Origin: Candidatus Benthicola azotiphorus
GTDB lineage: Bacteria; Gemmatimonadota; Gemmatimonadetes; Palauibacterales; Palauibacteraceae
DNA: 33,863 nucleotides
Assembly: GCA_947581745.1 (NCBI GenBank)
Contig: CANPVW010000258.1
Span: 1-33,863, forward strand
Direction: 5' to 3'
A model generated the notes under the pieces. The model saw nothing but the letters and a program-made list of their open reading frames with translations, was not told where the DNA came from and ran no database searches. The translations under genes and the position numbers were made by a program. Below are positions 233 to 26,276 of the stretch, piece by piece (position 1 is the stretch's first letter; each line of letters starts with the position of its first letter).

Positions 233-1552
233 TCAGGCATGGCTCTGAGCGGCCGGTCGACTCCCGGCAGCGGTGCGCCACCCGTAGTGGGCGATCACGA
301 CAAAGCAGATCACGACGAGCACGAAGGACGCCCGGACCGCGGGAAAGGTGACGCCGCCCAGGCTTACGGTATCGAGGTCGATGATGGCTCCCTGCAGAGG
401 CGGCATGACCGAGCCGCCCAGGATGGCCATGATCAGGCCCGCGGCCCCGAGCTTCGCGTCCTCCCCCACCCCCGTCAGGGCGATCCCGTAGATGGTCGGG
501 AACATCAGCGACATGCACGCCGAGATACCGACCAGACAATACAGTCCCGCCATTCCCGGGATGAGGATCGCGCCGAGAGTCAGTCCGGCGCCCGCGAGCG
601 CCAGCCTCAGGAGGAGGCCGCCGGGACTCACGTACTTGAGCAGGAACGTACAGATGAACCGGCTGCTCACGAAGATCACCATCGCGATCATGTTGTAGCC
701 CTGTGCCTGCACCTCGCTCAGTCCCAGCTCCATCGTCCCGTAGTGGATGATGAAGGTCCAGCACATGATCTGGGCGCCCACGTAGAAGAACTGGGCGACG
801 ACCCCTTCCACGTAGCGTCGATTCCCGGCCAGCCGGCGGAGTGTGGGCCTGACGTCGAGAGATCGGTCTTCTTCTCCGGCGGCCGGCATCCGTGCGGCGG
901 CGAGGGCGACGAAGACCACCACGAGGACGAGAGCGATTCCGAGGTAGGGAGTCCGGATCACCGCCAGGTCACTGGCCGTGAGAGCGGCCAGCCGGTCGGC
1001 AGGCATGGCCGCCCGCTCCGCGGCGGTCGCCGGGTCGAGACGGGCGAGGATGAGCTGCTGCGCCACGAACATGCCCAGCAGCGATCCCATGGGGTTGAAG
1101 GACTGGGCCAGGTTGAGGCGCCGGGTCGCCGTCTCCTCGGAGCCCATCGACAGGATGTACGGGTTGGCGCTGGTCTCGAGGAACGACAGACCGCAGGTGA
1201 GGATGAAGTAGGCAGCGAGGAAGGGCCAGAACACCATCATCAGGCTGCCCGGAATGAACAGAAGGGCTCCTGTGGCGTAGAGCCCGAGGCCGACCAGGAT
1301 GCCCGCCTTGTACGAGTAGCGCTTGATGAACAGCGCCGCCGGGAAGGCCATGGCGAAGTAGCCACCGTAGAAGGCGAACTGCACCAGTGATCCCTGGAAG
1401 TTGCTCATCTGGAGGATGCGGGAGAACGCCTTCACCATCGGGTTCGTGATGTCGTTGGCGAATCCCCATAGCGGGAACAGGATGGTGACCAGGACGAAGG
1501 GGATGAGAACCGGGGACGGAACGACCCTGCCGGAGACCTTCGCCTTCTCCAT
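233..1552 (-). CDS. fucP: L-fucose:H+ symporter-type MFS permease (FucP family)
   Basis: The 439-aa product starts at MEKAKVSGRVV (ATG 1552-1550). It aligns by eye with E. coli FucP along its length: PLWGFANDITNPMV, FQGSLVQFAFYGGYF, KRYSYKAGILVGLGLYATGALLF, LETSANPY (conserved Glu), RLNLAQSFNPMGS, QFFYVGAQ. The longer 568-aa track ORF is an Arg/Gly-rich extension that runs antisense-in-frame over the upstream gene. The ATG overlaps the upstream stop by 1 nt (TGATG). Confidence 0.88.
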   Translation of the reverse strand: MEKAKVSGRVVPSPVLIPFVLVTILFPLWGFANDITNPMVKAFSRILQMSNFQGSLVQFAFYGGYFAMAFPAALFIKRYSYKAGILVGLGLYATGALLFIPGSLMMVFWPFLAAYFILTCGLSFLETSANPYILSMGSEETATRRLNLAQSFNPMGSLLGMFVAQQLILARLDPATAAERAAMPADRLAALTASDLAVIRTPYLGIALVLVVVFVALAAARMPAAGEEDRSLDVRPTLRRLAGNRRYVEGVVAQFFYVGAQIMCWTFIIHYGTMELGLSEVQAQGYNMIAMVIFVSSRFICTFLLKYVSPGGLLLRLALAGAGLTLGAILIPGMAGLYCLVGISACMSLMFPTIYGIALTGVGEDAKLGAAGLIMAILGGSVMPPLQGAIIDLDTVSLGGVTFPAVRASFVLVVICFVVIAHYGWRTAAGSRPAAQSHA

Positions 1553-2289
1553 CAGAACCCCCTGAAATCCGTGCTCCGCCTGGCCGGGAGCCCCGCCCGG
1601 GGCAGCCGTCGGAGGACCCGGTACTCGATGCCGCGCGCCTCGCAGAACTCGCGCTTCTCGGGTCGATCGCCGTCTTCGTTCACCGCGTAGATGTCCGGCT
1701 GGAGGAGATCGATCTCCGGCTCGGCGTCCAGCCAGCCCCAGCCCGTGGCGACCACGGCCTTCTTCACGTGACGAATCGAGCCGACCATGTAGCGTCGCTC
1801 TTCTTCTGGAAACAGGGGGTGACCCTCTCCCTTCAGAAAGCGGATGTTCCGATCGCTTCCGACGGTTACGTAGAGGTCGGCGAGCTCCGCGACTTCTTCG
1901 AAGAAGCGCACGTGTCCGGAGTGAAGCCAGTCGTAGCATCCGGTCACGATGGCCTTCCTGCGGCCGCCGGATCCCGCAGGCATCTCCTCTCCCTCGGGCC
2001 CGGGAAAGCCTGTCAGGTCCGAGTCCGGGACGGTCAGGTACTCCAGGCCCGCGGTCGGCCCCTCGACCAGCCTGACGCTGGAAACGAAGCGGATGGCCTC
2101 GAGGACGTAACGCCGCTCGTCCTCCGGGAAGGCGGGCGGGCTGCCTGTGATTCTCGCGACGGCCTCGTCCGAGAGGAGCGAGACGTCGACGGCACCCAGC
2201 CGCGCGGCTTCCTGCAGGAACCGGACTTCCCTGGACCGCAGATCGTCGAAACTGCCCAGGACCTGGATCGTGCCGGTCTGATCAGGCAT
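1552..2289 (-). CDS. Tandem cytidylyltransferase-like (HxGH) nucleotidyltransferase; N-terminal domain degenerate, C-terminal domain intact
   Basis: The protein has two CT-like halves. Residues ~8-75 read VLGSFDDLRSREVRFLQEAARLG...EDERRYVLEAIRFV, with HxGH replaced by LRSRE. Residues ~115-245 read VTGCYDWLHSGHVRFFEEVAELAD...EEERRYMVGSIRHV, with an intact HSGH and a C-terminal RRSTD resembling the RTxGxST motif. The start overlaps the kinase stop by 8 nt. Confidence 0.8.
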   Translation of the reverse strand: MPDQTGTIQVLGSFDDLRSREVRFLQEAARLGAVDVSLLSDEAVARITGSPPAFPEDERRYVLEAIRFVSSVRLVEGPTAGLEYLTVPDSDLTGFPGPEGEEMPAGSGGRRKAIVTGCYDWLHSGHVRFFEEVAELADLYVTVGSDRNIRFLKGEGHPLFPEEERRYMVGSIRHVKKAVVATGWGWLDAEPEIDLLQPDIYAVNEDGDRPEKREFCEARGIEYRVLRRLPRAGLPARRSTDFRGF

Positions 2290-3088
2290 GCGGGGCGAGG
2301 CGGATGGTGACGTTGAATGCCCCGGGCACGGGTTTCCCGGAGATCACGTAAAGGTAGCCGCCGCCGCACCCGGAATACACCGCTCCCGGGTACCCGTCCT
2401 GGTACCTGCGAAGGATGGCAGGGAGGTCCACCGTGATCGTCGGGTGCCGGAAGCTGTGCGGAACGAGGACGTCCCAGCACGTCATGGTCTCGTTCATGGC
2501 CGCACCGAGCGCCGCCACATCTCGCGCCAGGATGGCCTCGTAACAGTCCTTGCCGCTCTGACCGAGACGCCGGACCCAGACCGGATCGAAGACGACTCCC
2601 TCGAGCGGATCGTAGCCGGCGGGACGCTGGTTGACGGGGAGGATGTGAATGACTCGCTGCAACCAGGCGGCGATCTCGGGATCGTTGGTGGACTCGACCC
2701 GACGCGGGAACACGCCTCCCTCGTGTTCGAAGTCGTAGTCCAACCGCGAGATCCCGGGATAGACGATCCCGGCCATGTCCTGCGACCCGGAGGGATCCGT
2801 CCTGTCACGATTCTCGGCGACGTAGAGTTCCCTGACCAGGTCCTCCGGCGGCCGGCTCGGAAGCTCGCCCCGCCAGATCTCCATTGCCGTGTTTCGGGTG
2901 CTGGTGGCGAGTCCCGCCCGCTCCATGAACCAGAACGTGGGCTCCACGCTCACCACGACCATGGATCCGAAAGAATCCGGGTTGTGGCGGGACATGAAGG
3001 GCTGGTCGATCCAACCTCCCGCCAGAGCGAGCCGATAGGGGATCGCGCCGATCGGGTCCGTGAAATCGAGGGGTCGACCGCTCGTCAT
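2282..3088 (-). CDS. GHMP-family sugar kinase, fucokinase/HddA-like (anomeric C1 kinase clade)
   Basis: Three GHMP motifs are visible: motif I-like YRLALAGGWIDQPF, a degenerate motif II ERAGLATSTRNTA followed by SGSQD (compare G(G/K)QDQ of fucokinase/heptose kinases), and motif III YSGCGGGYLYV. The product is 268 aa and begins 4 nt downstream of the RbsD/FucU stop. Confidence 0.7.
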   Translation of the reverse strand: MTSGRPLDFTDPIGAIPYRLALAGGWIDQPFMSRHNPDSFGSMVVVSVEPTFWFMERAGLATSTRNTAMEIWRGELPSRPPEDLVRELYVAENRDRTDPSGSQDMAGIVYPGISRLDYDFEHEGGVFPRRVESTNDPEIAAWLQRVIHILPVNQRPAGYDPLEGVVFDPVWVRRLGQSGKDCYEAILARDVAALGAAMNETMTCWDVLVPHSFRHPTITVDLPAILRRYQDGYPGAVYSGCGGGYLYVISGKPVPGAFNVTIRLAPHA

Positions 3089-3092
3089 CGCG

Positions 3093-3482
3093 TCAGGCCG
3101 ACTCGATGATGACGTTGCCGTATTGGGTCGTGTCCGCGGTACGGATCAGGCCCACCGCCTGCGGCACGCGTTTCTTGAACTCCACGTGAGGTTCGAACAC
3201 GATCTCGACCGGGGCGAGCGACTGGCGGAACGCCTCGCGGACGCTCTCGTCGTTCTCGGTCAGGAATTCCTCCGCCATGTAAGCCGCGCCGATCGAGAAG
3301 CCGTCCCGCAGCGCCGCCAGCACCTGTCGCACGGTCGGAACGTCATCGACGAGAGAGATGTCGACCGTCTCCATCCGCGGCCAGAAGGGGAAGCCCCGAT
3401 CCGCGATGACCAGGGTGTTGGTATGCCGGACCCTGCCGATCAGGCCGAGAATCTCGGGATTGAGGATTCCACGCTGAAGCAC
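3093..3482 (-). CDS. RbsD/FucU family sugar mutarotase/pyranase
   Basis: The 129-aa product opens with MLQRGILNPEILGLIGRVRHTNTLVIADRGFPF, matching the RbsD/FucU N-terminal signature (LN..i..li..lGHtD.lvi.DaglP). Size is typical of the family. Confidence 0.85.
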   Translation of the reverse strand: MLQRGILNPEILGLIGRVRHTNTLVIADRGFPFWPRMETVDISLVDDVPTVRQVLAALRDGFSIGAAYMAEEFLTENDESVREAFRQSLAPVEIVFEPHVEFKKRVPQAVGLIRTADTTQYGNVIIESA

Positions 3483-3497
3483 TGGCCATTCCTGCCG

Positions 3498-4526
3498 CTA
3501 GCTGACGGTCCGTTTGCCGGCCTTCCGATCCGCGTACTGTTGCTCGATCCAGGCGTACGTCTTCTCCATGCCCTCTCTCAGCGGGATGCTCGGTTCCCAC
3601 CCGAGAACCCGCTTGATCATCGTGTTGTCGCTGTTGCGGCCTCCGACCCCGAGCGGCCCATCGACGTAGTCCCGCTCGAGCTTCACGCCGGCGATTTCCT
3701 CCACCATGGTCGCCAGCCCGTCCACGGAGACCAGTTCGGCCGATCCCAGATTGATCGGCGTCGCGATCAGGTCGTCGCAGTGCACGATCCTGTCGATGCC
3801 CTGCACGCAGTCGTCCACGTACATGAAGGTGCGCTGCCTGGAGCCATCACCCCAGATCTCGATGCGGCCCGTGCCCAGGTCCCTGGCCTCGATGACTTTG
3901 CGGCAGAAGGCGGCGGGGACCTTCTCCCTGCCTCCGTCCCAGGTGCCGAAGGGACCGTACACGGCGTGAAAGCGGGCGATGAAGGTCTTCATGCCACGCT
4001 CGGCCCAGTACTCCTGGCAGAACATCTCCGACATGAGCTTCTCCCAGCCGTATCCTCGCTCGGCCATGGCCGGGTAGGCATCGGATTCCTTCAAAGCGCG
4101 GGAGTCGGGGTCCAACTGAAGCTGCGTGTTGTAGGCACAGGCGGAGGATGAGAAAAAATACCGCCGGACGCCGGCCCGGTAGGCCGCTTCGAGCATGTGC
4201 GTCGTGATCAGAATGCTGCGCATGCACTCGATCCGATGGTGCTCGATGAAGCCCATGCCACCCATGTCCGCGGCCAGGTTGTACACCTCAACCGCGCCTT
4301 CGCAGGCACGCCTGCAGTTCCCGGGTTCGCTCAGGTCGAGGCACAGGCGTTCGACACCGGGAACGGGCTGGTACCATTCCGAGACGGGCTTCTTGTCCAC
4401 CGCCCTGATCCGTGTGAAGCCCTTGTCCTTGAAGTAGCGGGTGAGGTGGCCCGCTATGAACCCTCCGGCTCCGGCGATGACGATCAGGTCGTCCGGATGG
4501 GTCTCGGCGCTGACTGTGTCGCTCAC
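3498..4526 (-). CDS. GDP-mannose 3,5-epimerase (extended SDR, GME family)
   Basis: The product begins with a GTG start (GGAG lies 7 nt upstream) and a Rossmann motif IAGAGGFIAGHL. Blocks nearly identical to plant GME are LAADMGGMGFI, FFSSSACAY (catalytic Cys), GYGWEKL (Tyr/Lys), ARFHAVYGPFGTWDGGREKVPAAFCRK (catalytic Lys) and GRNSDN. Confidence 0.88.
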   Translation of the reverse strand: MSDTVSAETHPDDLIVIAGAGGFIAGHLTRYFKDKGFTRIRAVDKKPVSEWYQPVPGVERLCLDLSEPGNCRRACEGAVEVYNLAADMGGMGFIEHHRIECMRSILITTHMLEAAYRAGVRRYFFSSSACAYNTQLQLDPDSRALKESDAYPAMAERGYGWEKLMSEMFCQEYWAERGMKTFIARFHAVYGPFGTWDGGREKVPAAFCRKVIEARDLGTGRIEIWGDGSRQRTFMYVDDCVQGIDRIVHCDDLIATPINLGSAELVSVDGLATMVEEIAGVKLERDYVDGPLGVGGRNSDNTMIKRVLGWEPSIPLREGMEKTYAWIEQQYADRKAGKRTVS

Positions 4527-4817
4527 GGTGTGCTCCGCTGTGGCTCGTTAATACCCGGGCCATCGATTCTATCCACTGGCCATGCGTCGAGCCAGAATCC
4601 GAGCCCTCATTCTACCACAAGTCAGCTGCCCGGCATCATCGGGCGGGAACCGCTCTTCCCACGATCCGGCAGATCCGCGATCTTGGCGCATGACGACTCC
4701 GGGTTATAAGCGCTTCTTCACGAGCTCAAGCGCCGGCGCGTGTTTCGCGTCATGGCCGTGTACGGCGCGACCCGCGCTACGCGGCCTGCTCGACCGCATG
4801 AACCTTCCCGACAGCCC

Positions 4818-5252
4818 ATGAAAGCAGCCAGAGGAGAGGGACCCAGCAGGGTCATGTGCGGCCACCGATACCGGGATGCGCCCGCTGCCATTGACTGGCT
4901 GTGCGGGGTATTCGGGTTCGAGCGACACGCGGTACATTGTGACGAGGACGGCAACGTCCTTCACGCCCAGCTCGTCCTCGGCGGCGGGATGATCTTCGTG
5001 GCCTCTGCGCTCGATACGCCTTTCGCTTCCCTCATCAAGCAGCCCGAGGAGATCGACCGGTGGGAGACGCGAAACGTCTACCTGCTCGTCGAGGATGCCG
5101 ACGCCGTCCACGCGACCGCTGTTGCTGAAGGCGCGGAGATCGTGATTCCGATCGCGGATGTGCCGTACGGAGGGCGCGTGTTCACGTGCCGCGACCTGGA
5201 GGGCCACCTGTGGAGCGTCGGGACCTACGACCCGTGGTCGGATCCGGGATGA
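4818..5252 (+). CDS. VOC (glyoxalase/bleomycin-resistance/PhnB-like) family protein
   Basis: HRYRDAPAAIDWLCGVFGFE...HAQLVLGGGMIF...VYLLVEDADAVHATAVAEGAEIV.P..D.PYGGRVFTCRDLEGHLWSVGTYDPW is a typical PhnB-like VOC pattern. The start is ambiguous: ATG 4818 is chosen because it keeps the first beta-strand, and ATG 4854 is the alternative. Confidence 0.75.
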   Translation: MKAARGEGPSRVMCGHRYRDAPAAIDWLCGVFGFERHAVHCDEDGNVLHAQLVLGGGMIFVASALDTPFASLIKQPEEIDRWETRNVYLLVEDADAVHATAVAEGAEIVIPIADVPYGGRVFTCRDLEGHLWSVGTYDPWSDPG

Positions 5253-5274
5253 ACACGGCCTGTGTGACCGAGCC

Positions 5275-7053
5275 GTGAGCGCGCGGTCCGACTACGACGT
5301 CATCGTCGTGGGGTCGGGCGCTGCCGGGGGGATGTCCGCGCTGGTCCTGGCCGTGCACGGCCTCAAGGTGCTGATGCTGGAGGCCGGGAGGAACTACGAT
5401 CCGCTCGTCGAGACGCCGATGTTCCAGCTCCCCTCCGAGGCTCCGCTCAGGGGAGCGGGCACGCCGGAGAAGCCGTTCGGCTTCTACGATGCCACGGTGG
5501 ACGGCGGCTGGCAGGTACCCGGCGAACCGTACGCGAGCGCGGACGGCGCCGGCTTCATGTGGTGGCGCGCCCGCATGCTGGGCGGCCGAACCAACCACTG
5601 GGGACGCATCTCGCTCCGCATGGGCGAGTACGACTTCAGGCCATACTCGCGGGACGGCCTCGGCTTCGACTGGCCGCTGACCTACGACGACCTCGCCCCA
5701 TACTATGATCGCACCGAGGCGCTGATCGGCGTGTACGGCTCGAACGAGGGCCTGGAGAACACCCCGAGCTCGTCACCCGACGTGCTGCTTCCGCCTCCCG
5801 CTCCCCGGGTGCACGAGCTGCTCACGCGGAAGACGTGTGCTGATCAGCTGGACATACCGGTCATCCCGGCCCACCTGGCGATCCTCTCGACGCGGCAGGA
5901 CGCGGAACGGTGGCCGGCCGAGCTGTTTCCGGACAATCCACTCGCGCGCCGGGTGGTGGGTCAGTCGATGCGCTCGCGAGCGGCCTGCTTCTGGGCCACG
6001 CCGTGCGGCCGTGGATGCTCGATCAGGGCGAACTTCCAGTCTACCACCGTGCTGCTGCCGCCGGCGCTCGCCACCGGCAACCTCGAGGTCCGCACCGACG
6101 CCATGGTGCGGGAAGTGACGGTCGACTCGAGCGGCCGAGCCACGGGCGTGCACTACGTCGACAAGACGACGCGCCTCGACGAACACGCGAGCGCCAGCGT
6201 CGTGATCCTCGCCGCGAGCGCCTGCGAATCGGTCCGCATCCTCCTGAACTCGAAGTCCGGTGCGTTTCCCCAGGGCCTCGCGAATGGGAGCGGCCTGGTC
6301 GGCAAGTACCTGATGGACACGGTGGGAGCGAGCCTCGGGGGTCAGATCCCGGTCCTGGAGGGAATGCCGCCGCACAACCAGGACGGCGCGAGCGCCATGC
6401 ACCTCTACATGCCGTGGTGGCTGTACGGTCAGCAGGCCGCCGGGCGGCTCGACTTCGCGCGCGGTTACCACATCGAGTTCGGCGGTGGGCGGCGCATGCC
6501 GGGCCCAGGGGTGTTCTCCGGCCTCGAGCAATTCACCGGCGGGGTCTACGGCCGTCGTTTCAAGGAAGCCGCCCGGCGGTACTACGGATCGTTCCTGTAT
6601 TTCGACGGCCGCGGCGAGATGATCCCGAACGAGGACTGCTACTGCGAGATCGATCCGGAGCGGGTCGACCGATGGGGCATCCCGACGCTGAAATTCCACT
6701 GGAAGTGGTCGAAGCACGAGCTGAACCAGGCCCGCCACATGCAGCGCACGTTCCGCGACATCATCGAGGCCATGGGAGGCCGCGTGATGGGTACGGTGCA
6801 CGAGGACGGGGCCGACTCGATCGCCCGGCCCGGCGAGATCATTCACGAGGTAGGGGGCGCGATCATGGGGGATGATCCGGACCGCTCCGTCCTGAACCAG
6901 TACTGTCAGTCGTGGGAGGTCCCCAACCTGTTCGTCACGGATGGCGCCGGATTCGTGTCGAACGCGGACAAGAACCCGACCCTCAGCATCATGGCGATCG
7001 CCTGGCGGGCCTGCGACTACCTGATGGACCGGATGCGGGGAGGGGCGCTGTGA
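5275..7053 (+). CDS. GMC-family FAD-dependent oxidoreductase (gluconate 2-dehydrogenase flavoprotein-like large subunit)
   Basis: YDVIVVGSGAAGGMSALVLAVHGLKVLMLEAG is the FAD-binding GxGxxG fold. The GGRTNHWG block and the C-terminal NLFVTDGAGFVSNADKNPTLSIMA block are GMC signatures. A GTG at 5275 is the only start between the VOC stop and the dinucleotide fold. No signal peptide is present. Confidence 0.85.
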   Translation: MSARSDYDVIVVGSGAAGGMSALVLAVHGLKVLMLEAGRNYDPLVETPMFQLPSEAPLRGAGTPEKPFGFYDATVDGGWQVPGEPYASADGAGFMWWRARMLGGRTNHWGRISLRMGEYDFRPYSRDGLGFDWPLTYDDLAPYYDRTEALIGVYGSNEGLENTPSSSPDVLLPPPAPRVHELLTRKTCADQLDIPVIPAHLAILSTRQDAERWPAELFPDNPLARRVVGQSMRSRAACFWATPCGRGCSIRANFQSTTVLLPPALATGNLEVRTDAMVREVTVDSSGRATGVHYVDKTTRLDEHASASVVILAASACESVRILLNSKSGAFPQGLANGSGLVGKYLMDTVGASLGGQIPVLEGMPPHNQDGASAMHLYMPWWLYGQQAAGRLDFARGYHIEFGGGRRMPGPGVFSGLEQFTGGVYGRRFKEAARRYYGSFLYFDGRGEMIPNEDCYCEIDPERVDRWGIPTLKFHWKWSKHELNQARHMQRTFRDIIEAMGGRVMGTVHEDGADSIARPGEIIHEVGGAIMGDDPDRSVLNQYCQSWEVPNLFVTDGAGFVSNADKNPTLSIMAIAWRACDYLMDRMRGGAL

Positions 7054-7718
7054 TGGACGAGTGGCCGAGGCGGATGGATCGGCGGACGGCCGTGAAGCTC
7101 ATCACCGCCGCGGCGGCGGCGCCGGCCGTGCTCGGCGCCTGCGGAACCGGCGCAACCGAGTCCGCAGCTTCCCGGTCGCGCTCCGGCAACCCCCTCGCCG
7201 CGGGGACGCCCTCCGACCCGAACCTCCTCGAGCCCGTGGTCCCGTGGGACCTGACGCTGAGCGAGGACGAGCTCGCGACGCTCGCGTCACTGTGTGACAC
7301 CATCATCCCGGCCGACGATCGATCGCCGGCGGCGAGCGCGGTCGGCGCCCACGAGTTCATCGATGAATGGGTGAGCGCGCCGTACGACGCGATGCGGGAG
7401 GACGGAGTGCTCGTGCGAGGAGGGCTCGTGTGGCTCGACGAAGAATCGGAGCGACGCTTCGGGGCCCGCTTCCGCGAGCTCTCCGGTGAAAGTCGAACGG
7501 AGATCTGCGACGACATCTGCTACGCGCCGGATGCGGCTCCCGAGTTCCAGGCGGCGGCACGGTTCTTCGACAAGGTGCGCGATCTGACGGCCACCGCCTT
7601 CTACACGACTCGGGTCGGCCTGGACGACCTCGGTTACGTGGGGAACGTTCCCCTGGCCAGTTGGGACCCGCCGCCCGAGGCCGCCCTGCGCCACGCCGGT
7701 CTCAAGCCAGGTGACTGA
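7053..7718 (+). CDS. Gluconate 2-dehydrogenase subunit 3-family small subunit with twin-arginine signal (possible lipoprotein)
   Basis: The ATG overlaps the GMC stop (TGATG). The N-terminus MDEWPRRMDRRTAVKLITAAAAAPAVLGAC has a TAT-type RR motif and a lipobox-like LGAC. The core LASLCDTIIPADDRSPAASAVGAHEFID...TAFYTT matches the small subunit usually paired with this GMC clade. Confidence 0.8.
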   Translation: MDEWPRRMDRRTAVKLITAAAAAPAVLGACGTGATESAASRSRSGNPLAAGTPSDPNLLEPVVPWDLTLSEDELATLASLCDTIIPADDRSPAASAVGAHEFIDEWVSAPYDAMREDGVLVRGGLVWLDEESERRFGARFRELSGESRTEICDDICYAPDAAPEFQAAARFFDKVRDLTATAFYTTRVGLDDLGYVGNVPLASWDPPPEAALRHAGLKPGD

Positions 7719-8348: not shown

Positions 8349-9392
<1,044 letters not shown>

Positions 9393-9402
9393 GTGACCTC
9401 CG

Positions 9403-10764
9403 TTAAGCGGTGACGGTGTCCGGCGTCGTCGCCTCACGATCCGTGTCAGGCCCTGACTCCGGGCAGTGTGCGATGATCCGTGTCGTGACGAAGAAGAAGA
9501 GCACCGACAGCAGCGCGTACAATCCCATGAAGCCGAGCAGCGTGAACAGCGAATTCCCCGCTGAGACGTTCGCGGAGGAGCCCTCCGCCGTGCGCAACAG
9601 CCCGTGGATGATCCAGGGCTGACGTCCGAGCTCCGCCGTCAGCCAGCCGGCCGTGTTGGCGATGAAGGGAAACGGCAGGGCCAGCATGAAGATCCACATG
9701 AGCCACCGCTGCCGGAACAGCTGCTTTCTCCACAGGAGGACCGCCCCCAGGCCCATGATCAGGATGAACAGCGTCCCCAGCCCCGCCATGATGTGATACG
9801 CGTAGTAGAGCAGCGGGATGTTGTCGGGCCAGAGATCGCGCTCATAGTCACTGAGCCCCGTCACCGTCGAGTCCCACCGGTAGTGCGTCAGGAGAGAGAG
9901 AACGCGAGGCAGCACGACCGGATTGTCCAGCGCGAGCCTCTCCATGTCGGGCTGTCCGATGAGGACCAGCGGGGCGCCCACCTCGGTATGGAAGTGGCCC
10001 TCCATTGCCGCGAACGTGACGGGTTGCCTGGAGTGCACCAGCTTCGCCTGGATGTCGCCCGTCGGCACGGCCGCAGCTGCGCTGGCAATGAACCCCGCGA
10101 CCACCGCCACCGAAGTCCATCTGCGAGCCACTTCCAGGTGTTCGCCGCGAAGCACGTAGTACGCACCGATCCCCGTCATCACGAAGCTGCCAGTGATCAC
10201 CGCCCCGGTCATCGTGTGTACCCAGGCGGCGAAGGCCCACGGGTTCGTGAGCAGCGCAGCCAGGCTCTCGAGTCGGATCGAACCGTCTGCCAGCACCGAA
10301 TAGCCGACCGGATGCTGCATCCACGCGTTCGTACACACGATGAAGAAGCCGGAGAGCCAGGTCCCAACGAAGAGGAGCAGCGAGGCGATCCAATGACCGC
10401 GCTGGCCGATTCGTTTCTCGCCGAACAGGAGCACGTAGAGGAAGGACGATTCGAGAAAGAAAGCGAAGACCCCCTCCATCGCGAGCGTCTGCCCGATCAC
10501 TCCTCCGGCGGCTGCCGAGAATCGGGCCCAATTCGTCCCGAACTGGAATTCCATCGGAATTCCGGTCACGACGCCCATCACGAACGTGACCCCGAAGATC
10601 TTCAGCCAGAACCGCACGGCCTGGTTGGCGGAGGGAACGCCCCGCAAGGCCATGGTCTTGAGCAGGAATATGAGCAACGCCAGGCCCATCGTGACCTGAG
10701 GGAAGAGGTAGTGGTAGGTGATCGTGAAGGCGAACTGGAGTCTATGCAGCGCGAGGGCTTCCAT
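9403..10764 (-). CDS. cydA: Cytochrome bd ubiquinol oxidase subunit I (short Q-loop type)
   Basis: MEALALHRLQFAFTITYHYLFPQVTMGL...GIPMEFQFGTNW...GRQPWIIHGLLRT are hallmark CydA motifs. At 453 aa it is in the short Q-loop size class. Confidence 0.93.
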   Translation of the reverse strand: MEALALHRLQFAFTITYHYLFPQVTMGLALLIFLLKTMALRGVPSANQAVRFWLKIFGVTFVMGVVTGIPMEFQFGTNWARFSAAAGGVIGQTLAMEGVFAFFLESSFLYVLLFGEKRIGQRGHWIASLLLFVGTWLSGFFIVCTNAWMQHPVGYSVLADGSIRLESLAALLTNPWAFAAWVHTMTGAVITGSFVMTGIGAYYVLRGEHLEVARRWTSVAVVAGFIASAAAAVPTGDIQAKLVHSRQPVTFAAMEGHFHTEVGAPLVLIGQPDMERLALDNPVVLPRVLSLLTHYRWDSTVTGLSDYERDLWPDNIPLLYYAYHIMAGLGTLFILIMGLGAVLLWRKQLFRQRWLMWIFMLALPFPFIANTAGWLTAELGRQPWIIHGLLRTAEGSSANVSAGNSLFTLLGFMGLYALLSVLFFFVTTRIIAHCPESGPDTDREATTPDTVTA

Positions 10765-10956: not shown

Positions 10957-11913
10957 CTAGGGTATCGACGCGGAATGGTCCCCGTCGGTGCACGTCCAGA
11001 AGGCCTCACCCCGGTACAGGCGCCGTCGGGCGCCGGGTTGCGCGGCCAGGATCGCCAGGATGCGCCCGACTCGTCTCGGCCACCCGCCCTCGAGAGCCGC
11101 GATGAGATCTCGCTCCCGCAGAGGATGACGGGCGATGATGTCCAGGACGGCCTCGACGGGCTGGGCGTCTGGTCGCAGTACCAGCTCGCCGCCATCGGGC
11201 GGTACCACGCTCGCCACCTGTCCGAGGATGGCCATCGCCCGGATCAGACCTTCCTCGTCCGCTCCCACGACCCACTCCTCCGCCGGCGGTCGGACGGGCA
11301 CGTTGAGATGCAGCTGGTCGGGCCGGATTCGGTCCAGTGCCCACGCGAGCTCACTCAGCGCCGATTCGGTGTCGTTGAGGTCCCTGATGAGCATCACCTC
11401 GATCCATAGCTCCGCCCGGAATACCTTCCGAAACGTCGCCAGGCCGTCGATGATGTCCGCGACTTTCAGCCGGGGCCAGGGCCGGTTGATCCGGCGAAAC
11501 GTCTCCTGGTCGGCCGCGTCGAGCGACGGGATTACGACGTCCGCTTCGACCAGGTCATCTCTCACCTCGGGGAGAAACATCAGCGAGCCGTTCGTGATCA
11601 CGGCGAGCGGCAGGTTCGTGAGCTTCCTCGCCTCCCGGATGAGGCGGCCAAGCTTCGCGTACAGGAGCGGTTCGCCCTCTCCGACGATCGTTACGTAGTC
11701 GACGGCCCCCGACCCCGATTCCGCGATCGCGTGGCCCAGCTGCGCGAGGATCTCATCGCAGGGAACGTACTCCTTTCGCTCGTTCGTCAACGGCGTGGTC
11801 CGTCCGAGTTGACAGTAGACACAGTTGTAGTTGCACGTCTTGAAAGGGACCGGATCGACTCCGAGCGATTGACCCAGACGGCGAGATGGCGCGGGGCCAT
11901 AGACACAGTTCAT
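10957..11913 (-). CDS. Radical SAM protein (COG0731-like, function unknown)
   Basis: The N-terminus YGPAPSRRLGQSLGVDPVPFKTCNYNCVYCQLG carries the CxxxCxxC radical SAM cluster motif in the GP.pSRRLG.SLGi context of this small subfamily. It is followed by VTIVGEGEPLL and ITNGSL (SAM-binding-type blocks). The last ~70 aa form a helical, possibly winged-helix-like tail. Confidence 0.85.
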   Translation of the reverse strand: MNCVYGPAPSRRLGQSLGVDPVPFKTCNYNCVYCQLGRTTPLTNERKEYVPCDEILAQLGHAIAESGSGAVDYVTIVGEGEPLLYAKLGRLIREARKLTNLPLAVITNGSLMFLPEVRDDLVEADVVIPSLDAADQETFRRINRPWPRLKVADIIDGLATFRKVFRAELWIEVMLIRDLNDTESALSELAWALDRIRPDQLHLNVPVRPPAEEWVVGADEEGLIRAMAILGQVASVVPPDGGELVLRPDAQPVEAVLDIIARHPLRERDLIAALEGGWPRRVGRILAILAAQPGARRRLYRGEAFWTCTDGDHSASIP

Positions 11914-12044
11914 GATACCCCCTCATCCGCGGCAACGACGCCCAACAGCATAGTGCCGGCAACGTCGGATCGAGTTCCATCCGGTGTGGCCTTCAGGAGT
12001 CTGGATCCGCCCGGGCCCGCTCCCTTGACGGAACGTCAACTCGG

Positions 12045-12074
12045 GATATATTATGTGCATATGCACAATATATC
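12045..12074. promoter_or_regulatory. AT-rich palindromic operator/promoter candidate in the radical SAM / DUF134 divergent region
   Basis: The element reads gatatattaTGTGCATATGCACAatatatc. The core TGTGCATATGCACA (12054-12067) is a perfect 14-bp palindrome with 5-4-5 geometry. Its flanks gatatat/atatatc are also inverted, with a 2-nt bulge. TATATT (12047-12052) lies 37 nt upstream of the DUF134 ATG. This is the most AT-rich stretch I noticed in the window. Confidence 0.5.
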
Positions 12075-12088
12075 GTACAGGAGAGCAG

Positions 12089-12400
12089 ATGCCTCGTCCG
12101 AAGAAGCCTCGTCATTGTCGTCAATACGACGGAGACCTGATCTTCAAGCCCCGCAGCATTCCGATGTCCCGACTCGAGACAATCGCCCTGGAGTTGGACG
12201 AGCTCGAGGCGATGAGGCTTTGCGACCACGACGGCCTGGATCAGACCGAGACCGGGCGCCGAATGGGTGTATCACGAGGCACGGTGCAGCGCCTCCTTCG
12301 CTCGGGGCGATCGAAGGTTCTGGCCGCGCTCCTCAGCAACGCGGCGCTCATCATCGGTCAAGGAGAGAATCGTGCAACTGTGCATTCCGACAGAGGATGA
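12089..12400 (+). CDS. DUF134 (UPF0251) family predicted DNA-binding protein
   Basis: MPRPKKPRHCRQ...FKPRSIPMSRLETIALELDELEAMRLCDHDGLDQTETGRRMGVSRGTVQRLLRSGRSKVLAAL is the family consensus (MPRP.K.R...FKP.G.P...L..v.L.lDElEA.RL.D.egl.Q.eaa..MgVSR.T..R.l..AR.Kva.AL). The second half is a sigma-70 region-4-like HTH. GGAGAG lies 5-10 nt upstream of ATG 12089. Confidence 0.85.
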   Translation: MPRPKKPRHCRQYDGDLIFKPRSIPMSRLETIALELDELEAMRLCDHDGLDQTETGRRMGVSRGTVQRLLRSGRSKVLAALLSNAALIIGQGENRATVHSDRG

Positions 12401-12761
12401 TACGGGGCTGACCGGGCGGATCAGCGCTCACTTCGGCAGCGCCCGCTGGTTCACGCTCGTCGACACGGAGTCCGGCACCGCGCGCTCGGTGGCCAACCGG
12501 GACTTTGGACACCGACCTGGCACCTGCGACGGGGCTGAGAGCATCTCGGGTCTGGGCGTGGAGGCCGTGGTATGCTCCGGCTTCGGACGCAGGGCCTTCC
12601 GGTCCATGCGCTCGGCCGGGATCCCCGTGTACCTGACGCGAAGCTCGACGGTGCGGGAGGCGGTGGCGGAATTCAACATGGATCTACTGCCGCTACTCAT
12701 CGAGGAAGAGGCCTGTTCGGGCGGACGCGGCCTCGGCAGGCACCATGGACACGGACAGTAG
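12372..12761 (+). CDS. NifB/NifX-type 'dinitrogenase iron-molybdenum cofactor biosynthesis' domain protein (Nitro_FeMo-Co family), His-rich tail
   Basis: RISAHFGSARWFTLVDTESG...GVEAVVCSGFGRRAFRSMRSAGIPVY...TVREAVAEF matches the small stand-alone NifX/NifB-C domain (HFG.a..f.i.d...; G.d.vi....G..a...L...GI.vy). The C-terminus reads GRHHGHGQ. A GTG at 12372 follows AAGGAGAG. The gene overlaps the DUF134 3' end by 29 nt. Confidence 0.8.
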   Translation: MQLCIPTEDDTGLTGRISAHFGSARWFTLVDTESGTARSVANRDFGHRPGTCDGAESISGLGVEAVVCSGFGRRAFRSMRSAGIPVYLTRSSTVREAVAEFNMDLLPLLIEEEACSGGRGLGRHHGHGQ

Positions 12762-12771
12762 AGGAGGCCGA

Positions 12772-13218
12772 GTGAGCGACACGACGAAGATCGGCATCGT
12801 CATCTGTGACCGATACCGGCGTTGCGCGGGAGGCAAGTGCTTGCGGGCGATGAGGAACAGAGAGGGCGCGTTCAGCCGGTACGAGGGAGTGGAGCTCGAG
12901 CTGATCGGCTACACAACTTGCGACGGGTGTCCGGGCGGCAACATCGAGTACCTCGGTGAGGAAATGACGAAGAACGGGGCCGAGGCGATTCATCTGGCTA
13001 CGGGACTCGTGGTCGGCTATCCCCCCTGTCCGTACATCGAGACGTTCAAGACCTTTCTCGAGTCCCGCTGCGCCGTGGAAGTGGTGATCGGGACCCACCC
13101 CATTCCGGCCAGATACCTGGAGACGCACACACGCCTCGGAACGTGGGACGACCCTTCGTGGGAGCCGCTTCTCGCACCCATCATGGCGGACGCCGGGACT
13201 CGCGATGCCTACAACTAG
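12772..13218 (+). CDS. CGGC-domain protein
   Basis: KIGIVICDRYRRCAGGKCLRA...IGYTTCDGCPGGNIEY...AIHLATGLVVGYPPCPY matches the Cys pattern of the CGGC family (C..C.GG, multiple conserved Cys). A GTG at 12772 sits 4 nt after GAGGAGG, which directly follows the previous TAG. ATG 12745 is the alternative start. Confidence 0.8.
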   Translation: MSDTTKIGIVICDRYRRCAGGKCLRAMRNREGAFSRYEGVELELIGYTTCDGCPGGNIEYLGEEMTKNGAEAIHLATGLVVGYPPCPYIETFKTFLESRCAVEVVIGTHPIPARYLETHTRLGTWDDPSWEPLLAPIMADAGTRDAYN

Positions 13219-15938: not shown

Positions 15939-16094
15939 ACTGTCCGCCTCCCCCTTACTGGTGGGCTCCCTGTACGGATGAGTGCAGAATCGGGGCGTCG
16001 AAGTTCCGCACCGGGAACCGATCGCGTCTGACCAGGTACTAATGCTGTGACGGTCGCCCCCCTCGCCGCACCCTTCACCGATGCGAGGCAGTTG

Positions 16095-17117
16095 ATGATC
16101 ATGACCGCGCCTTCCGGCAGGCCTCGGCCCTGGTGCATCATACTGGCGGGTGGGGGAGGCTCACGGCTGCACGGTTGCACCGTCGACAGCACCGGCCACC
16201 ACGTACCGAAACAGTACTGCGTTGTCGATGCAGGGAGGACGCTCCTGCAGCTGGCGATCGCGCGCGCGGAGCTTTTCGTCGATCTGGATCACGTGGTGGT
16301 CGTGGTCTCGAGCCAGCATCGAAGGTGGTGGAAGCCGCAACTCGCGGGCGTCCTTCCACGTGAGAACGTTGTAGTCCAGCCTCTGTCGAGGGGAACCGCC
16401 GTGGGTGTTCTGCTCCCTCTACTCCGCGTGCTGGCGCGCGATCCCGCCGCCCACGTGGTTCTGCTCCCGGCGGACCACCACTTCCGCCATGAGGACCGCC
16501 TCGCCCGCGTGATTCGTGTCTGTCTCGATCACACCGATCATGAGCCGTCCACGCTCGTCTTCGTGGGAGTCGAGGCCAACTCAGCAACGTCAGATTTCGG
16601 ATACATCGTGCCCCGCACGAGCGGAGGCACGGGTCCGAGTCCGGTGGCGTCCTTTCACGAGAAGCCGCGGCCTGAGCTGGCCCAGCATCTCGTCGGTCGC
16701 GGGGCTCTCTGGAACACGCTCATCTTCGCGGCCCGCGGCCGATACCTGCTGCAGGTGATCAGGGAGCGGTTTCCCCATACGGTTGCAGCGTTGCGCGTGG
16801 CCGTATCACCGGAAATCGACCTGGACCGCCAGGCACTGGCGCTTGCGGCCATCTATCCCGGTCTTACGAACATCGACCTGTCGGCAGACGTGCTGCAGCA
16901 CGTGACCGGCTCAATGGCGGTAACGCCGGCGATCGACGTGGGGTGGTCGGAGCTGGGTACTCCGGATCGCGTGTGCGCCTTCTGGGATGAGATTCGTCCA
17001 GCACGCATCGGTCGGAAGCCGTCTGGATCTCCCGCGAGCCGACCGGCGGCCGCTTCCGCGCTCTTCAGTGCAAGCGCAGCAGGCGGAGGAGGGATCTCGC
17101 TCCGTCCACCGGAGTGA
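16095..17117 (+). CDS. Sugar-phosphate nucleotidyltransferase (mannose-1-phosphate guanylyltransferase-like, NTP_transferase fold)
   Basis: WCIILAGGGGSRLHG...PKQYC is the G-rich NTP-binding loop (ILAGG.G.RL). LLPADHHF and VFVGVEANSATSDFGYIV match the catalytic core of ManC-like enzymes. No cupin/isomerase domain is present, and the C-terminal tail is Ala/Ser/Gly-rich. The start is uncertain: ATG 16095 has GAGG 8 nt upstream, and GTG 16047 is possible. Confidence 0.7.
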   Translation: MIMTAPSGRPRPWCIILAGGGGSRLHGCTVDSTGHHVPKQYCVVDAGRTLLQLAIARAELFVDLDHVVVVVSSQHRRWWKPQLAGVLPRENVVVQPLSRGTAVGVLLPLLRVLARDPAAHVVLLPADHHFRHEDRLARVIRVCLDHTDHEPSTLVFVGVEANSATSDFGYIVPRTSGGTGPSPVASFHEKPRPELAQHLVGRGALWNTLIFAARGRYLLQVIRERFPHTVAALRVAVSPEIDLDRQALALAAIYPGLTNIDLSADVLQHVTGSMAVTPAIDVGWSELGTPDRVCAFWDEIRPARIGRKPSGSPASRPAAASALFSASAAGGGGISLRPPE

Positions 17118-25887: not shown

Positions 25888-26276
25888 GCCTCTCTCCTCC
25901 GGGGCCACAACGACCACACGATGAAGCCGCCGAATCCCACCGTGATCAGTCCCGCGATGCGGAGGGCGATCGGCCGCAGGCCCGCTCCCCACTCGGCGAT
26001 CGCCTGTATGCTGCCCAGGCCGACAATCGGTATGGCGACGCCCGACACGAAGATCAGCGCTCCGAGCGCTCTAAGGGTGCGCGGCATCCGGGAGACCGGT
26101 GCGGCGATCCACATGAAAACGCCGACGGCCAGACGAATCGCGACCACGAGCCACAGTCGCTCGGGCCTCAGGAATACCTCCGCGAGATCCACCAGGCCGT
26201 CGGGCTGCACGATCACCCAGCCACCGAACCCGGCGACGAGCCAGCCGAACGCGAGGACGATCTGCCGGGCTATCAC
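25884..26276 (-). CDS. Small integral membrane protein (about 4 TM helices), unknown family, embedded in the fds operon
   Basis: The 130-aa product has four hydrophobic spans: IVLAFGWLVAGFGGWVIV, LWLVVAIRLAVGVFMWIAA, LGALIFVSGVAIPIVGL and IAGLITVGFGGFIVWSLW. Its GTG start overlaps the upstream stop (GTGA) and its stop overlaps the fdsA ATG (ATGA). Confidence 0.65.
   Translation of the reverse strand: MIARQIVLAFGWLVAGFGGWVIVQPDGLVDLAEVFLRPERLWLVVAIRLAVGVFMWIAAPVSRMPRTLRALGALIFVSGVAIPIVGLGSIQAIAEWGAGLRPIALRIAGLITVGFGGFIVWSLWPRRREA

Follow-up and report, generated by a model that had tools for sequence, protein, structure and literature searches.

We analysed a stretch of DNA of 33,863 nucleotides (nt) from Candidatus Benthicola azotiphorus, a member of the Gemmatimonadota (assembly GCA_947581745.1, contig CANPVW010000258.1, positions 1 to 33,863), which we refer to as the window. 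Our main focus is on five minus-strand genes that place a GDP-mannose 3,5-epimerase (GME, also called GM35E) beside a mutarotase, a kinase-like protein, a nucleotidyltransferase (NTase) and a sugar importer. Their coordinates in the window, with protein lengths in amino acids (aa), are as follows.

3498..4526, minus strand: GDP-mannose 3,5-epimerase (GME/GM35E), 342 aa, first gene of the operon.
3093..3482, minus strand: RbsD/FucU-family mutarotase/pyranase, 129 aa, PF05025.
2282..3088, minus strand: GHMP-fold kinase-like protein, proposed L-galactose (L-fucose-type) 1-kinase, 268 aa, assigned by AlphaFold/Foldseek and motifs.
1552..2289, minus strand: tandem cytidylyltransferase (CT)-fold NTase, proposed L-galactose-1-phosphate guanylyltransferase, 245 aa, PF01467.
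233..1552, minus strand: FucP-type L-fucose/L-galactose:H+ symporter of the major facilitator superfamily (MFS), 439 aa, TIGR00885, last gene of the operon.
4527..4739, no strand: presumed promoter/operator region 5' of GME, shared with a divergent glyoxalase-family gene and assigned by its position.

From GME to FucP, the first two junctions are gaps of 15 and 4 nt, and the last two are overlaps of 8 and 1 nt. These open reading frames (ORFs) and junctions match exactly those of the original prediction, which had been made from the letters of this DNA, and the boundaries were identical when genes were called independently on a longer copy of this contig (L001). The arrangement is far from chance, given that the order GME, kinase, NTase recurs across phyla. 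The window has about 65% G+C and its nearest relative is a Gemmatimonadota metagenome-assembled genome (MAG); in base composition the operon resembles the remainder of the window, with no sign of a foreign origin. A simple promoter scan 5' of GME found no sigma-70 consensus, and terminator-like matches were disregarded, as all of them fall inside coding sequence. A scan of 25 window ORFs revealed no glycosyltransferase, in line with what had been predicted for the window, although some small or Pfam-less ORFs could not be resolved.

Domain families were assigned with Pfam and with NCBIfam at its curated equivalog cut-offs, the Protein Data Bank (PDB) was searched by phmmer and profile hmmsearch, and folds were assigned with Foldseek from AlphaFold models. 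The window GME has the extended short-chain dehydrogenase/reductase (SDR) fold (PF01370, E=2e-35). In the PDB it matches the Arabidopsis GME 2c59 with E=5e-85 and 46% identity over 316 aa, and 8sg0 equally at E=5e-85; GDP-fucose synthase, the next SDR family after GM35E, follows at E=3e-20. GM35E differs from GMER and GalE by a catalytic Cys, a Tyr-x3-Lys, a base that is Lys and not His, and an Arg that acidifies the Cys, while GMER has His at the position of the base Lys and Lys at that of the Arg (PMC8787198). The window protein carries these residues in SSSACAY (C130), YGWEK (Y159/K163), GGREK (K202) and GRNSDN (R297), which correspond to Arabidopsis C145, Y174, K178, K217 and R306. In the 73 GME ORFs of the neighbourhood set introduced below, which have a median identity of 73% to the window GME, the catalytic residues are invariant except for one gapped row at R297 (Arg in 73 of 74 aligned rows, window GME included), and the NAD-binding glycine motif GAGGFIAG (residues 19-26) is kept in 73 of 73. 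Judged by its sequence, the window epimerase shows the residues and similarity that define the family and is a genuine GM35E with the plant catalytic set, as had been claimed for it.

The 268-aa kinase-like protein was resolved only by structure. No Pfam or NCBIfam model matches it, including GHMP_kinases_N and GHMP_kinases_C, and neither phmmer nor profile hmmsearch against the PDB gave a significant match. The best of these, and the only GHMP protein picked up by sequence, is the FKP fucokinase, with E=0.77 (0.14 with a profile) and similarity confined to the two motifs AGGW.D.P and GGGGYLY. When the AlphaFold model (pLDDT 78.8, pTM 0.83) was searched with Foldseek, every match with E<=0.001 was a GHMP protein. 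The top matches are the Campylobacter sugar kinase 4n3o, the heptokinase WcbL (4usk), the HddA-type kinase 3k85 and FKP (9iip), with E values from 2e-6 to 6e-5 and TMq of 0.5-0.62. The family has three invariant motifs, AGGWIDQPF, PSGSQDM and GCGGGY; of the GHMP signatures, motif I (PYRLALAGGWIDQP) and motif III (GCGGGY) show no variation and can be aligned to FKP. GHMP_kinases_C is matched, at E=1.3e-6, by the distant relative P0233, which has E=1e-29 to the kinase query. The family comprises more than 7000 clusters at 90% identity, those listed being "hypothetical" or unnamed, and the protein retains 60-65% identity between phyla. All characterised GHMP sugar kinases phosphorylate, to our knowledge, the anomeric hydroxyl. 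On the strength of its modelled fold and its motifs, the 268-aa protein would group with the C1-phosphorylating GHMP kinases (fucokinase, HddA, WcbL), and we predict for it an ATP-dependent anomeric kinase activity. The proposal that it is a GHMP kinase of the fucokinase/HddA clade thus held for the fold and for motifs I and III and did not hold for a Pfam or NCBIfam assignment.

The remaining three proteins fall into the families proposed for them. The NTase matches PF01467 (E=4e-13), its H123-S-G-H126 is invariant among 30 aligned homologues, and its fold agrees with an HxGH nucleotidyltransferase. In the same alignment the N-terminal half-domain is degenerate and lacks HxGH, and the C-terminal domain is of the catalytic type, with TGCYDWxHSGH and a C-terminal RxSTxLRGF. 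The full-length AlphaFold model (pLDDT 85.9) superposes on human ethanolamine-phosphate cytidylyltransferase (ECT), a tandem-CT pseudo-dimer, with TMq 0.72, and the single domain superposes on 3glv, HldC, Fom1 and TagD. Both NCBIfam matches are below their cut-offs: the best, rfaE_dom_II, scores 70.4 against 181.5 bits, and g3p_cytidyltrns 48.7 against 165.4 bits. Neither sequence nor fold fixed a substrate, as ECT, TagD, HldC and Fom1 score alike; in the route that we propose below, the enzyme would use GTP. The mutarotase has the RbsD_FucU Pfam domain (PF05025, E=4e-26, 92 bits) and misses both equivalog cut-offs (RbsD, 83.6 against 93 bits; FucU, 16.7 against 141 bits), which leaves the assignment at the level of the RbsD/FucU family. 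FucP passes the TIGR00885 equivalog cut-off of 280 bits with 557 bits. The FucP of E. coli carries L-galactose besides L-fucose.

The window NTase and its two nearest relatives in this alignment (~244-247 aa) also lack about 38 residues of the N-terminal half-domain (alignment columns ~79-116). This segment is present in the ~273-aa versions of other phyla and, from the alignment, seems to be dispensable.

Scanning one genome per GTDB species with two invariant kinase peptides, we found a relative of the kinase encoded in at least 537 species genomes. The best 80 of these carriers, all of them MAGs, belong to Gemmatimonadota, Planctomycetota, Verrucomicrobiota, Chloroflexota, Acidobacteriota, Latescibacteria, Hydrogenedentes, Lentisphaerae and Spirochaetales. 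Together with four metagenomic loci they form a neighbourhood set of 84 loci from about 10 phyla, in which all six-frame ORFs were clustered and given family labels from seed proteins and Pfam; the denominators for gene order include only loci with sufficient flanking sequence. In a neighbourhood count of the kind that the original prediction had suggested, centred here on the kinase, GME lies no more than three genes upstream of the kinase on the same strand in 68 of 78 loci, a CT-type NTase lies directly downstream of the kinase in 59 of 76, and the full trio is present in 52 of 71. The conserved core is therefore GME-kinase-NTase, and FucP and the mutarotase are exchangeable accessories. 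The five-gene set that had been proposed as a unit is conserved in its three core members, not in its transporter and mutarotase, which vary between lineages. Between phyla, identity is about 73% for GME (median), about 62% for the kinase and about 55-60% for the NTase. Conservation this high points to strong constraint, to a lateral spread of the module or to a combination of the two.

Gene fusions tie the same activities together. An exhaustive search of cluster representatives gave 655 kinase-related clusters, and among these the CT-fold NTase and the kinase are fused in P0130, P0143, P0160 and P0174; P0130 adjoins a GME 57% identical to that of the window. P0173 joins a domain of the L-rhamnose-mutarotase family to NTase and kinase, and P0233 joins a PNP/UDP phosphorylase domain to the same pair. 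We argue from the NTase-kinase and mutarotase-NTase-kinase fusions that these enzymes catalyse consecutive steps on a free sugar. P0173 has a FucP-like MFS transporter and GH29 as neighbours and no GME, the arrangement expected of plain L-fucose-type salvage. In the distant fusions P0183 and P0207, a GT2 or TcdA/TcdB-type glycosyltransferase domain is joined to the kinase; with P0233, they indicate that the wider kinase family also has other functions, which are probably biosynthetic.

The genes that accompany the core change by lineage, yet their functional class is constant: it is catabolic. Of the 84 loci, 22 have LacI regulators and 23 have divergent AraC regulators. RbsD/FucU genes stand near the core in 21 loci, in variable position, and GH29 genes occur in 15, the L-fucose isomerase FucI in 5 and FGGY kinases in 3. 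The same core is combined with importers of four non-orthologous families (FucP-type MFS, SSF, CUT1-ABC and CUT2-ABC), and other accessory genes encode sulfatases, GH95, Melibiase-family and GH43 proteins. A typical Anaerolineae operon runs LacI, GME, kinase, NTase, ManC, ABC importer, FucU, FucI, FGGY kinase (L030, L044, L045, L085). In a typical Planctomycetota locus, AraC is divergent from GME, kinase and NTase, which are followed by GH29, sulfatase or ManC. No recurrent glycosyltransferase family was detected among 224 neighbouring ORFs examined with Pfam (108 contiguous same-strand neighbours and 116 further neighbours chosen at random within 6 kb), nor in the top 45 neighbourhood clusters. 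Consistent embedding in exopolysaccharide or O-antigen loci, which the original prediction had named as the pattern that would point to purely biosynthetic salvage, was thus not what we observed.

The same neighbourhoods contain enzymes that act on mannose phosphates. In 20 of 70 loci a ManC-type mannose-1-phosphate guanylyltransferase, with NTP_transferase and ManC beta-helix domains and 246 bits to GMP_PMI, is encoded downstream of the kinase at a distance of at most four genes, mostly directly after the NTase. In L036, the sole case for phosphomannomutase (PMM), this enzyme follows ManC; in L051, the sole case for phosphomannose isomerase (PMI), a class I PMI stands between NTase and ManC. 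By these three enzymes, found in line, GDP-mannose would be channelled into glycolysis, and pooled across loci the neighbourhoods hold the complete set of enzymes that a conversion of free L-hexose into fructose-6-phosphate, by way of GDP-L-galactose and GDP-mannose, would require. The fucose pyrophosphorylase domain PF07959 was seen in 2 of 108 neighbouring ORFs of related loci and in none of the five operon proteins of the window. Past window position 1, the longer contig encodes (L001 14331-17170) a 604-aa protein of the GH29 alpha-L-fucosidase family with PA14/GLEYA domains, followed by a 342-aa protein without a Pfam or NCBIfam match; a Peptidase_M19 gene lies between this pair and FucP.

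Some loci carry additional genes next to the module. A second NDP-sugar SDR (~306 aa), with partial similarity to GalE and dTDP-glucose dehydratase, comes after it in about six to seven loci (L007, at 11687-12607, L011, L015, L032, L040, L014 and L062) and may extend the pathway to another epimer or a deoxy sugar. Seven loci (L011, L015, L016, L023, L039, L063 and L081) have a GFO/IDH/MocA oxidoreductase nearby that is similar to the "glycoside 3-dehydrogenase" family of Bacteroides BT_2158, with 306 bits and thus short of the cut-off. In two Verrucomicrobia loci (L021, 11893-12741; L024, 11904-12947), TIR-domain and DUF4365 proteins are encoded between NTase and ManC, and these look like defence-type insertions into a sugar operon.

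We propose that the module runs a Leloir-like catabolic route from L-galactose through L-galactose-1-phosphate, GDP-L-galactose and GDP-D-mannose to mannose-1-phosphate, a reading to which we would give a probability of about 0.55. We infer each substrate and the direction of flux, the latter from context only. L-galactose would be freed outside the cell, where the GH29 gene beyond the window could contribute, and taken up by FucP, and the RbsD/FucU mutarotase would provide the beta anomer. The compact GHMP-fold kinase would then use ATP to form beta-L-galactose-1-phosphate, from which the tandem CT-fold NTase, with GTP, would make GDP-beta-L-galactose and pyrophosphate (PPi). GME, acting in its thermodynamically favoured direction, would convert GDP-beta-L-galactose into GDP-alpha-D-mannose. 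A ManC-type pyrophosphorylase, present in the operon of many relatives and presumably encoded elsewhere in this genome, would consume PPi to give mannose-1-phosphate and regenerate GTP, and PMM and PMI would lead on to fructose-6-phosphate. Because the PPi released by the NTase would be used by ManC and GTP would be regenerated, the nucleotide would act catalytically, like UDP in the Leloir pathway, with a net expense of one ATP per hexose. The GME reaction is reversible (PMC8787198), and its equilibrium lies on the GDP-mannose side: 100 g/L GDP-mannose yields about 15 g/L GDP-L-galactose and 5 g/L GDP-L-gulose (PMC6678494). The catabolic direction would therefore be downhill.

The sequence of steps in the original prediction (import, C1 phosphorylation, nucleotide activation and epimerisation to GDP-D-mannose) is supported by the protein families, the neighbourhoods, the fusions and the catabolic context, and each computational check that it had suggested pointed the same way. 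Its "reversed Smirnoff-Wheeler-type funnel" shares the intermediates and is refined here to a Leloir-like route. It is tempting to go further and see here an undescribed and widespread Leloir-type L-galactose pathway in which GME runs "backwards" and two activities lack a characterised representative, namely a compact GHMP L-galactokinase and the first GTP-dependent sugar-1-phosphate guanylyltransferase of the HxGH fold; to this fuller version we would give slightly less than even odds.

Several observations weigh against a catabolic route, and some of them belong to a different explanation, in which the module supplies GDP-L-sugars for glycan synthesis. In a salvage branch, mutarotase, kinase and NTase would turn scavenged L-fucose or L-galactose into GDP-L-fucose or GDP-L-galactose, as FKP does in Bacteroides; in a de novo branch, PMI, PMM, ManC and GME would lead from fructose-6-phosphate to GDP-L-galactose; and fucosyl- or L-galactosyl-transferases with genes at other sites would consume the products. 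ManC, PMM and PMI fit the synthesis of GDP-L-galactose equally well, and with GME they make up the biosynthetic half of the plant route, found in line. The glycosyltransferase fusions P0183 and P0207 also agree with such a role, and the literature assumes that bacterial GME is biosynthetic, serving lipopolysaccharide (LPS) or antibiotics (PMC8787198, PMC6678494). One locus, L089, has a fused mutarotase-NTase-kinase with FucP and GH29 and no GME, a salvage-like set which suggests that the kinase/NTase pair alone would also serve plain salvage. In the window itself, the operon has no ManC. The sole NTP_transferase gene, and thus the only candidate for the ManC step in the window, is unlinked to it at a distance of 12 kb (16047-17117, plus strand, 356 aa) and scores 95 bits to GMP_PMI against a cut-off of 373. 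About 16 loci have GME and kinase and no adjacent NTase. Further doubts concern the enzymes: GHMP motif II, the phosphate loop PxGSGLGSS, is replaced in the kinase by the atypical invariant PSGSQDM, none of the sequence models identifies this protein as a GHMP kinase, and the characterised CT-fold NTases that we know of use CTP or ATP, none GTP. The route as a whole is moreover a prediction from genes and their context. Nevertheless, the modules stand behind LacI or AraC sugar regulators, their operons also encode importers, FucI/FucK, sulfatases and glycoside hydrolases, and no glycosyltransferase family recurs in the neighbourhoods scanned. For these reasons we rate supply for glycan synthesis below the catabolic route and consider it unlikely, if still a serious contender; it would also make little regulatory sense to switch on de novo synthesis along with the import of the sugar that this branch would replace.

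The choice of sugar has to be weighed as well, since L-fucose, or another L-6-deoxyhexose or L-hexose, could be the substrate of either a catabolic or a biosynthetic module, with the GME homologue turning GDP-L-fucose into GDP-6-deoxy-D-mannose (GDP-D-rhamnose) or something similar. In nature L-galactose is much rarer than L-fucose, the window transporter is a FucP equivalog, the glycosidase near the operon on the same contig, like those in 15 loci, belongs to the GH29 "alpha-L-fucosidase" family, and the FKP fucokinase was the sole GHMP protein found by sequence; the extra NDP-sugar SDR after the module in about six loci would fit such a substrate too. L-galactose is nevertheless favoured. 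PMM requires the O6 of the hexose, and PMM and PMI together need a 6-hydroxyl, so that the in-line ManC, PMM and PMI imply a 6-hydroxy hexose. GDP-D-rhamnose, the expected product from GDP-L-fucose, has no catabolic exit that we know of, and by our own pathway reasoning a reversal of GMD is thermodynamically implausible. FucI and FucK (the FGGY kinase) in the same operons already handle L-fucose, which would make a second L-fucose route redundant and argues for a different sugar, and the GME has 46% identity to, and every catalytic residue of, the plant enzyme that acts on GDP-mannose and GDP-L-galactose. Adjacent sulfatases fit sulfated L-galactans such as porphyran. Two enzymes of family GH29, BT2192 and BpGH29, are active as alpha-galactosidases, and GH95 includes some L-galactosidases (PMC10154630). 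We have therefore down-weighted the conversion of L-fucose to GDP-D-rhamnose and regard L-fucose or a similar sugar as an improbable substrate; of the sugars first named, "L-galactose, possibly L-fucose", the former is retained as the favoured one. It seems least likely of all, and very improbable, that the kinase-like and CT-fold enzymes activate something else, for example a phosphate other than that of a sugar, with CTP as in TagD and ECT, or a heptose, with ATP as in HldE, and that GME is a mere neighbour. ECT and TagD are the best PDB neighbours of the NTase, its best NCBIfam match, below cut-off, is a heptose-1-phosphate adenylyltransferase domain, and no GTP-using member of the HxGH fold is known to us. 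Such a role would have to accommodate the strict adjacency of GME, kinase and NTase in about 10 phyla, with overlapping reading frames, the existence of mutarotase fusions, and sugar importers and glycosidases around the module, where there is no heptose or teichoic-acid context. Both the heptose (HldE-like) and the teichoic-acid/phospholipid (TagD/ECT-like) readings were rejected on this genomic context.

Outside the operon, the window holds several other gene groups. Divergent from it, at 4740-7718 on the plus strand, are a glyoxalase-family gene, a GMC-family FAD oxidoreductase (a 631-aa ORF) and a "gluconate 2-dehydrogenase subunit 3" protein; the latter two are a pair of the type found in membrane-associated sugar dehydrogenases, and the genes of this group are not conserved beside the module in other phyla. 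At 10957-13200 a radical-SAM protein is encoded near a protein with a dinitrogenase FeMo-cofactor-binding domain, and on the longer contig DUF134 and CGGC-domain proteins belong to this small conserved cluster too. On the minus strand at 23020-27904, a 990-aa molybdopterin oxidoreductase with N-terminal 2Fe-2S and 4Fe-4S domains stands beside a fused NuoE/NuoF-like flavoprotein of 543 aa, a pair that looks like an NAD-linked formate dehydrogenase. Subunits I and II of a cytochrome bd oxidase and two large Ser/Thr protein kinases are encoded at 8349-10764 (minus), 17259-19499 (minus) and 28062-30662 (plus). One of the kinases has TPR repeats, and sigma factors of the ECF type flank them; these genes, like those for cytochrome bd, are ordinary background for the lineage.

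Our search of the literature for a kinase/NTase/GME route, an L-galactokinase, an L-galactose-1-phosphate guanylyltransferase, and bacterial operons linked to GDP-L-galactose yielded nothing beyond ascorbate synthesis in plants and the oxidative routes. This agrees with the statement in the original prediction that the known bacterial L-galactose pathway is dehydrogenase-based, and a 2025 paper on L-galactose catabolism does not mention GDP-sugars (PMC12632266). If our proposal is correct, the module would be a third, mechanistically distinct route for L-galactose and would give GME, which is familiar from the synthesis of vitamin C and cell walls in plants, its first role in catabolism. A function would be found both for a highly conserved "hypothetical" kinase family and for a large, generically annotated nucleotidyltransferase family. 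On the fuller version of the proposal, most bacterial GMEs would have to be reassigned from glycan or antibiotic biosynthesis to catabolism. The proposal bears on how Planctomycetota, Verrucomicrobiota, Chloroflexota and Gemmatimonadota process L-sugar glycans of plant, algal and animal origin, such as rhamnogalacturonan II (RG-II), porphyran and sulfated L-galactans. Kinase, NTase and GME could also offer a one-pot enzymatic route between L-galactose, GDP-L-galactose and GDP-mannose, an interconversion for which glyco-engineers now depend on FKP or on costly substrates.

The module belongs to none of the known systems with which we compared it: it has no GalT and no PF07959, its NTase is of the HxGH type, and its kinase is from an unmodelled GHMP subfamily. 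With bacterial L-galactose catabolism in Phocaeicola vulgatus and in Luteolibacter LG18 (lgu genes) it shares the presumed substrate and the ecological role. However, those routes are oxidative, leading through L-galactose dehydrogenase, lactonase and L-galactonate dehydrogenase to D-tagaturonate, whereas the route proposed here is phosphorylative and uses nucleotide sugars. The plant Smirnoff-Wheeler pathway has the same intermediates (mannose-1-phosphate, GDP-mannose, GDP-L-galactose, L-galactose-1-phosphate and L-galactose) and, in GME, the same enzyme (46% identity). The route proposed here would run the other way, lacks genes for making ascorbate, and has the NTase and the kinase in place of VTC2 (GDP-L-galactose phosphorylase) and VTC4 (L-galactose-1-phosphate phosphatase).

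L-fucose salvage, with FucU/FUOM, fucokinase and GDP-fucose pyrophosphorylase or the bifunctional FKP, likewise proceeds from a mutarotase to a GHMP kinase and on to the guanylylation of a beta-L-sugar-1-phosphate. The fucokinase half of FKP is the nearest relative of our kinase in sequence and fold, the relatives found here are also fused, and the FKP of Bacteroides accepts L-galactose as well (PMC6678494, PMC8787198). Unlike FKP, the module has an NTase of the HxGH cytidylyltransferase fold and not PF07959, a kinase shorter by about 100 residues, and a coupling to GME in catabolic operons, while FKP serves glycan synthesis. The ADP-heptose enzymes HldE and HldD, and HddA with HddC, resemble the module in coupling or fusing a sugar-1-kinase to a CT-fold NTase and in having an SDR epimerase that acts on the NDP-sugar; HldC, 3glv, HddA and WcbL are among the nearest structural matches of the NTase and kinase. 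Those systems are, however, biosynthetic (LPS), act on heptose with ADP or GDP as the carrier and, in HldE, employ a kinase of the PfkB fold, and rfaE_dom_II stays below its cut-off here.

The Leloir pathway for D-galactose (GalM, GalK, GalT, GalE) and the route proposed here have their logic and their order of reactions in common: a mutarotase, an anomeric kinase of the GHMP type, activation by a nucleotide that would be catalytic, and an SDR epimerase that brings the rare epimer into a common nucleotide sugar. The genes for mutarotase, predicted anomeric kinase, nucleotidyl transfer and epimerase occur together in the window, related loci add LacI or AraC regulators and importers, and a GalT-type HIT transferase is absent. 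The differences lie in the carrier, which would be GDP and not UDP; in the epimerase, a 3,5-double epimerase that would lead from the L to the D series where GalE is a 4-epimerase; and in the kinase, which belongs to a separate, unmodelled GHMP subfamily. Where the Leloir pathway relies on the exchange catalysed by the HIT-type GalT, the route proposed here would use two pyrophosphorylases, the CT-fold NTase running forwards and ManC running in reverse.

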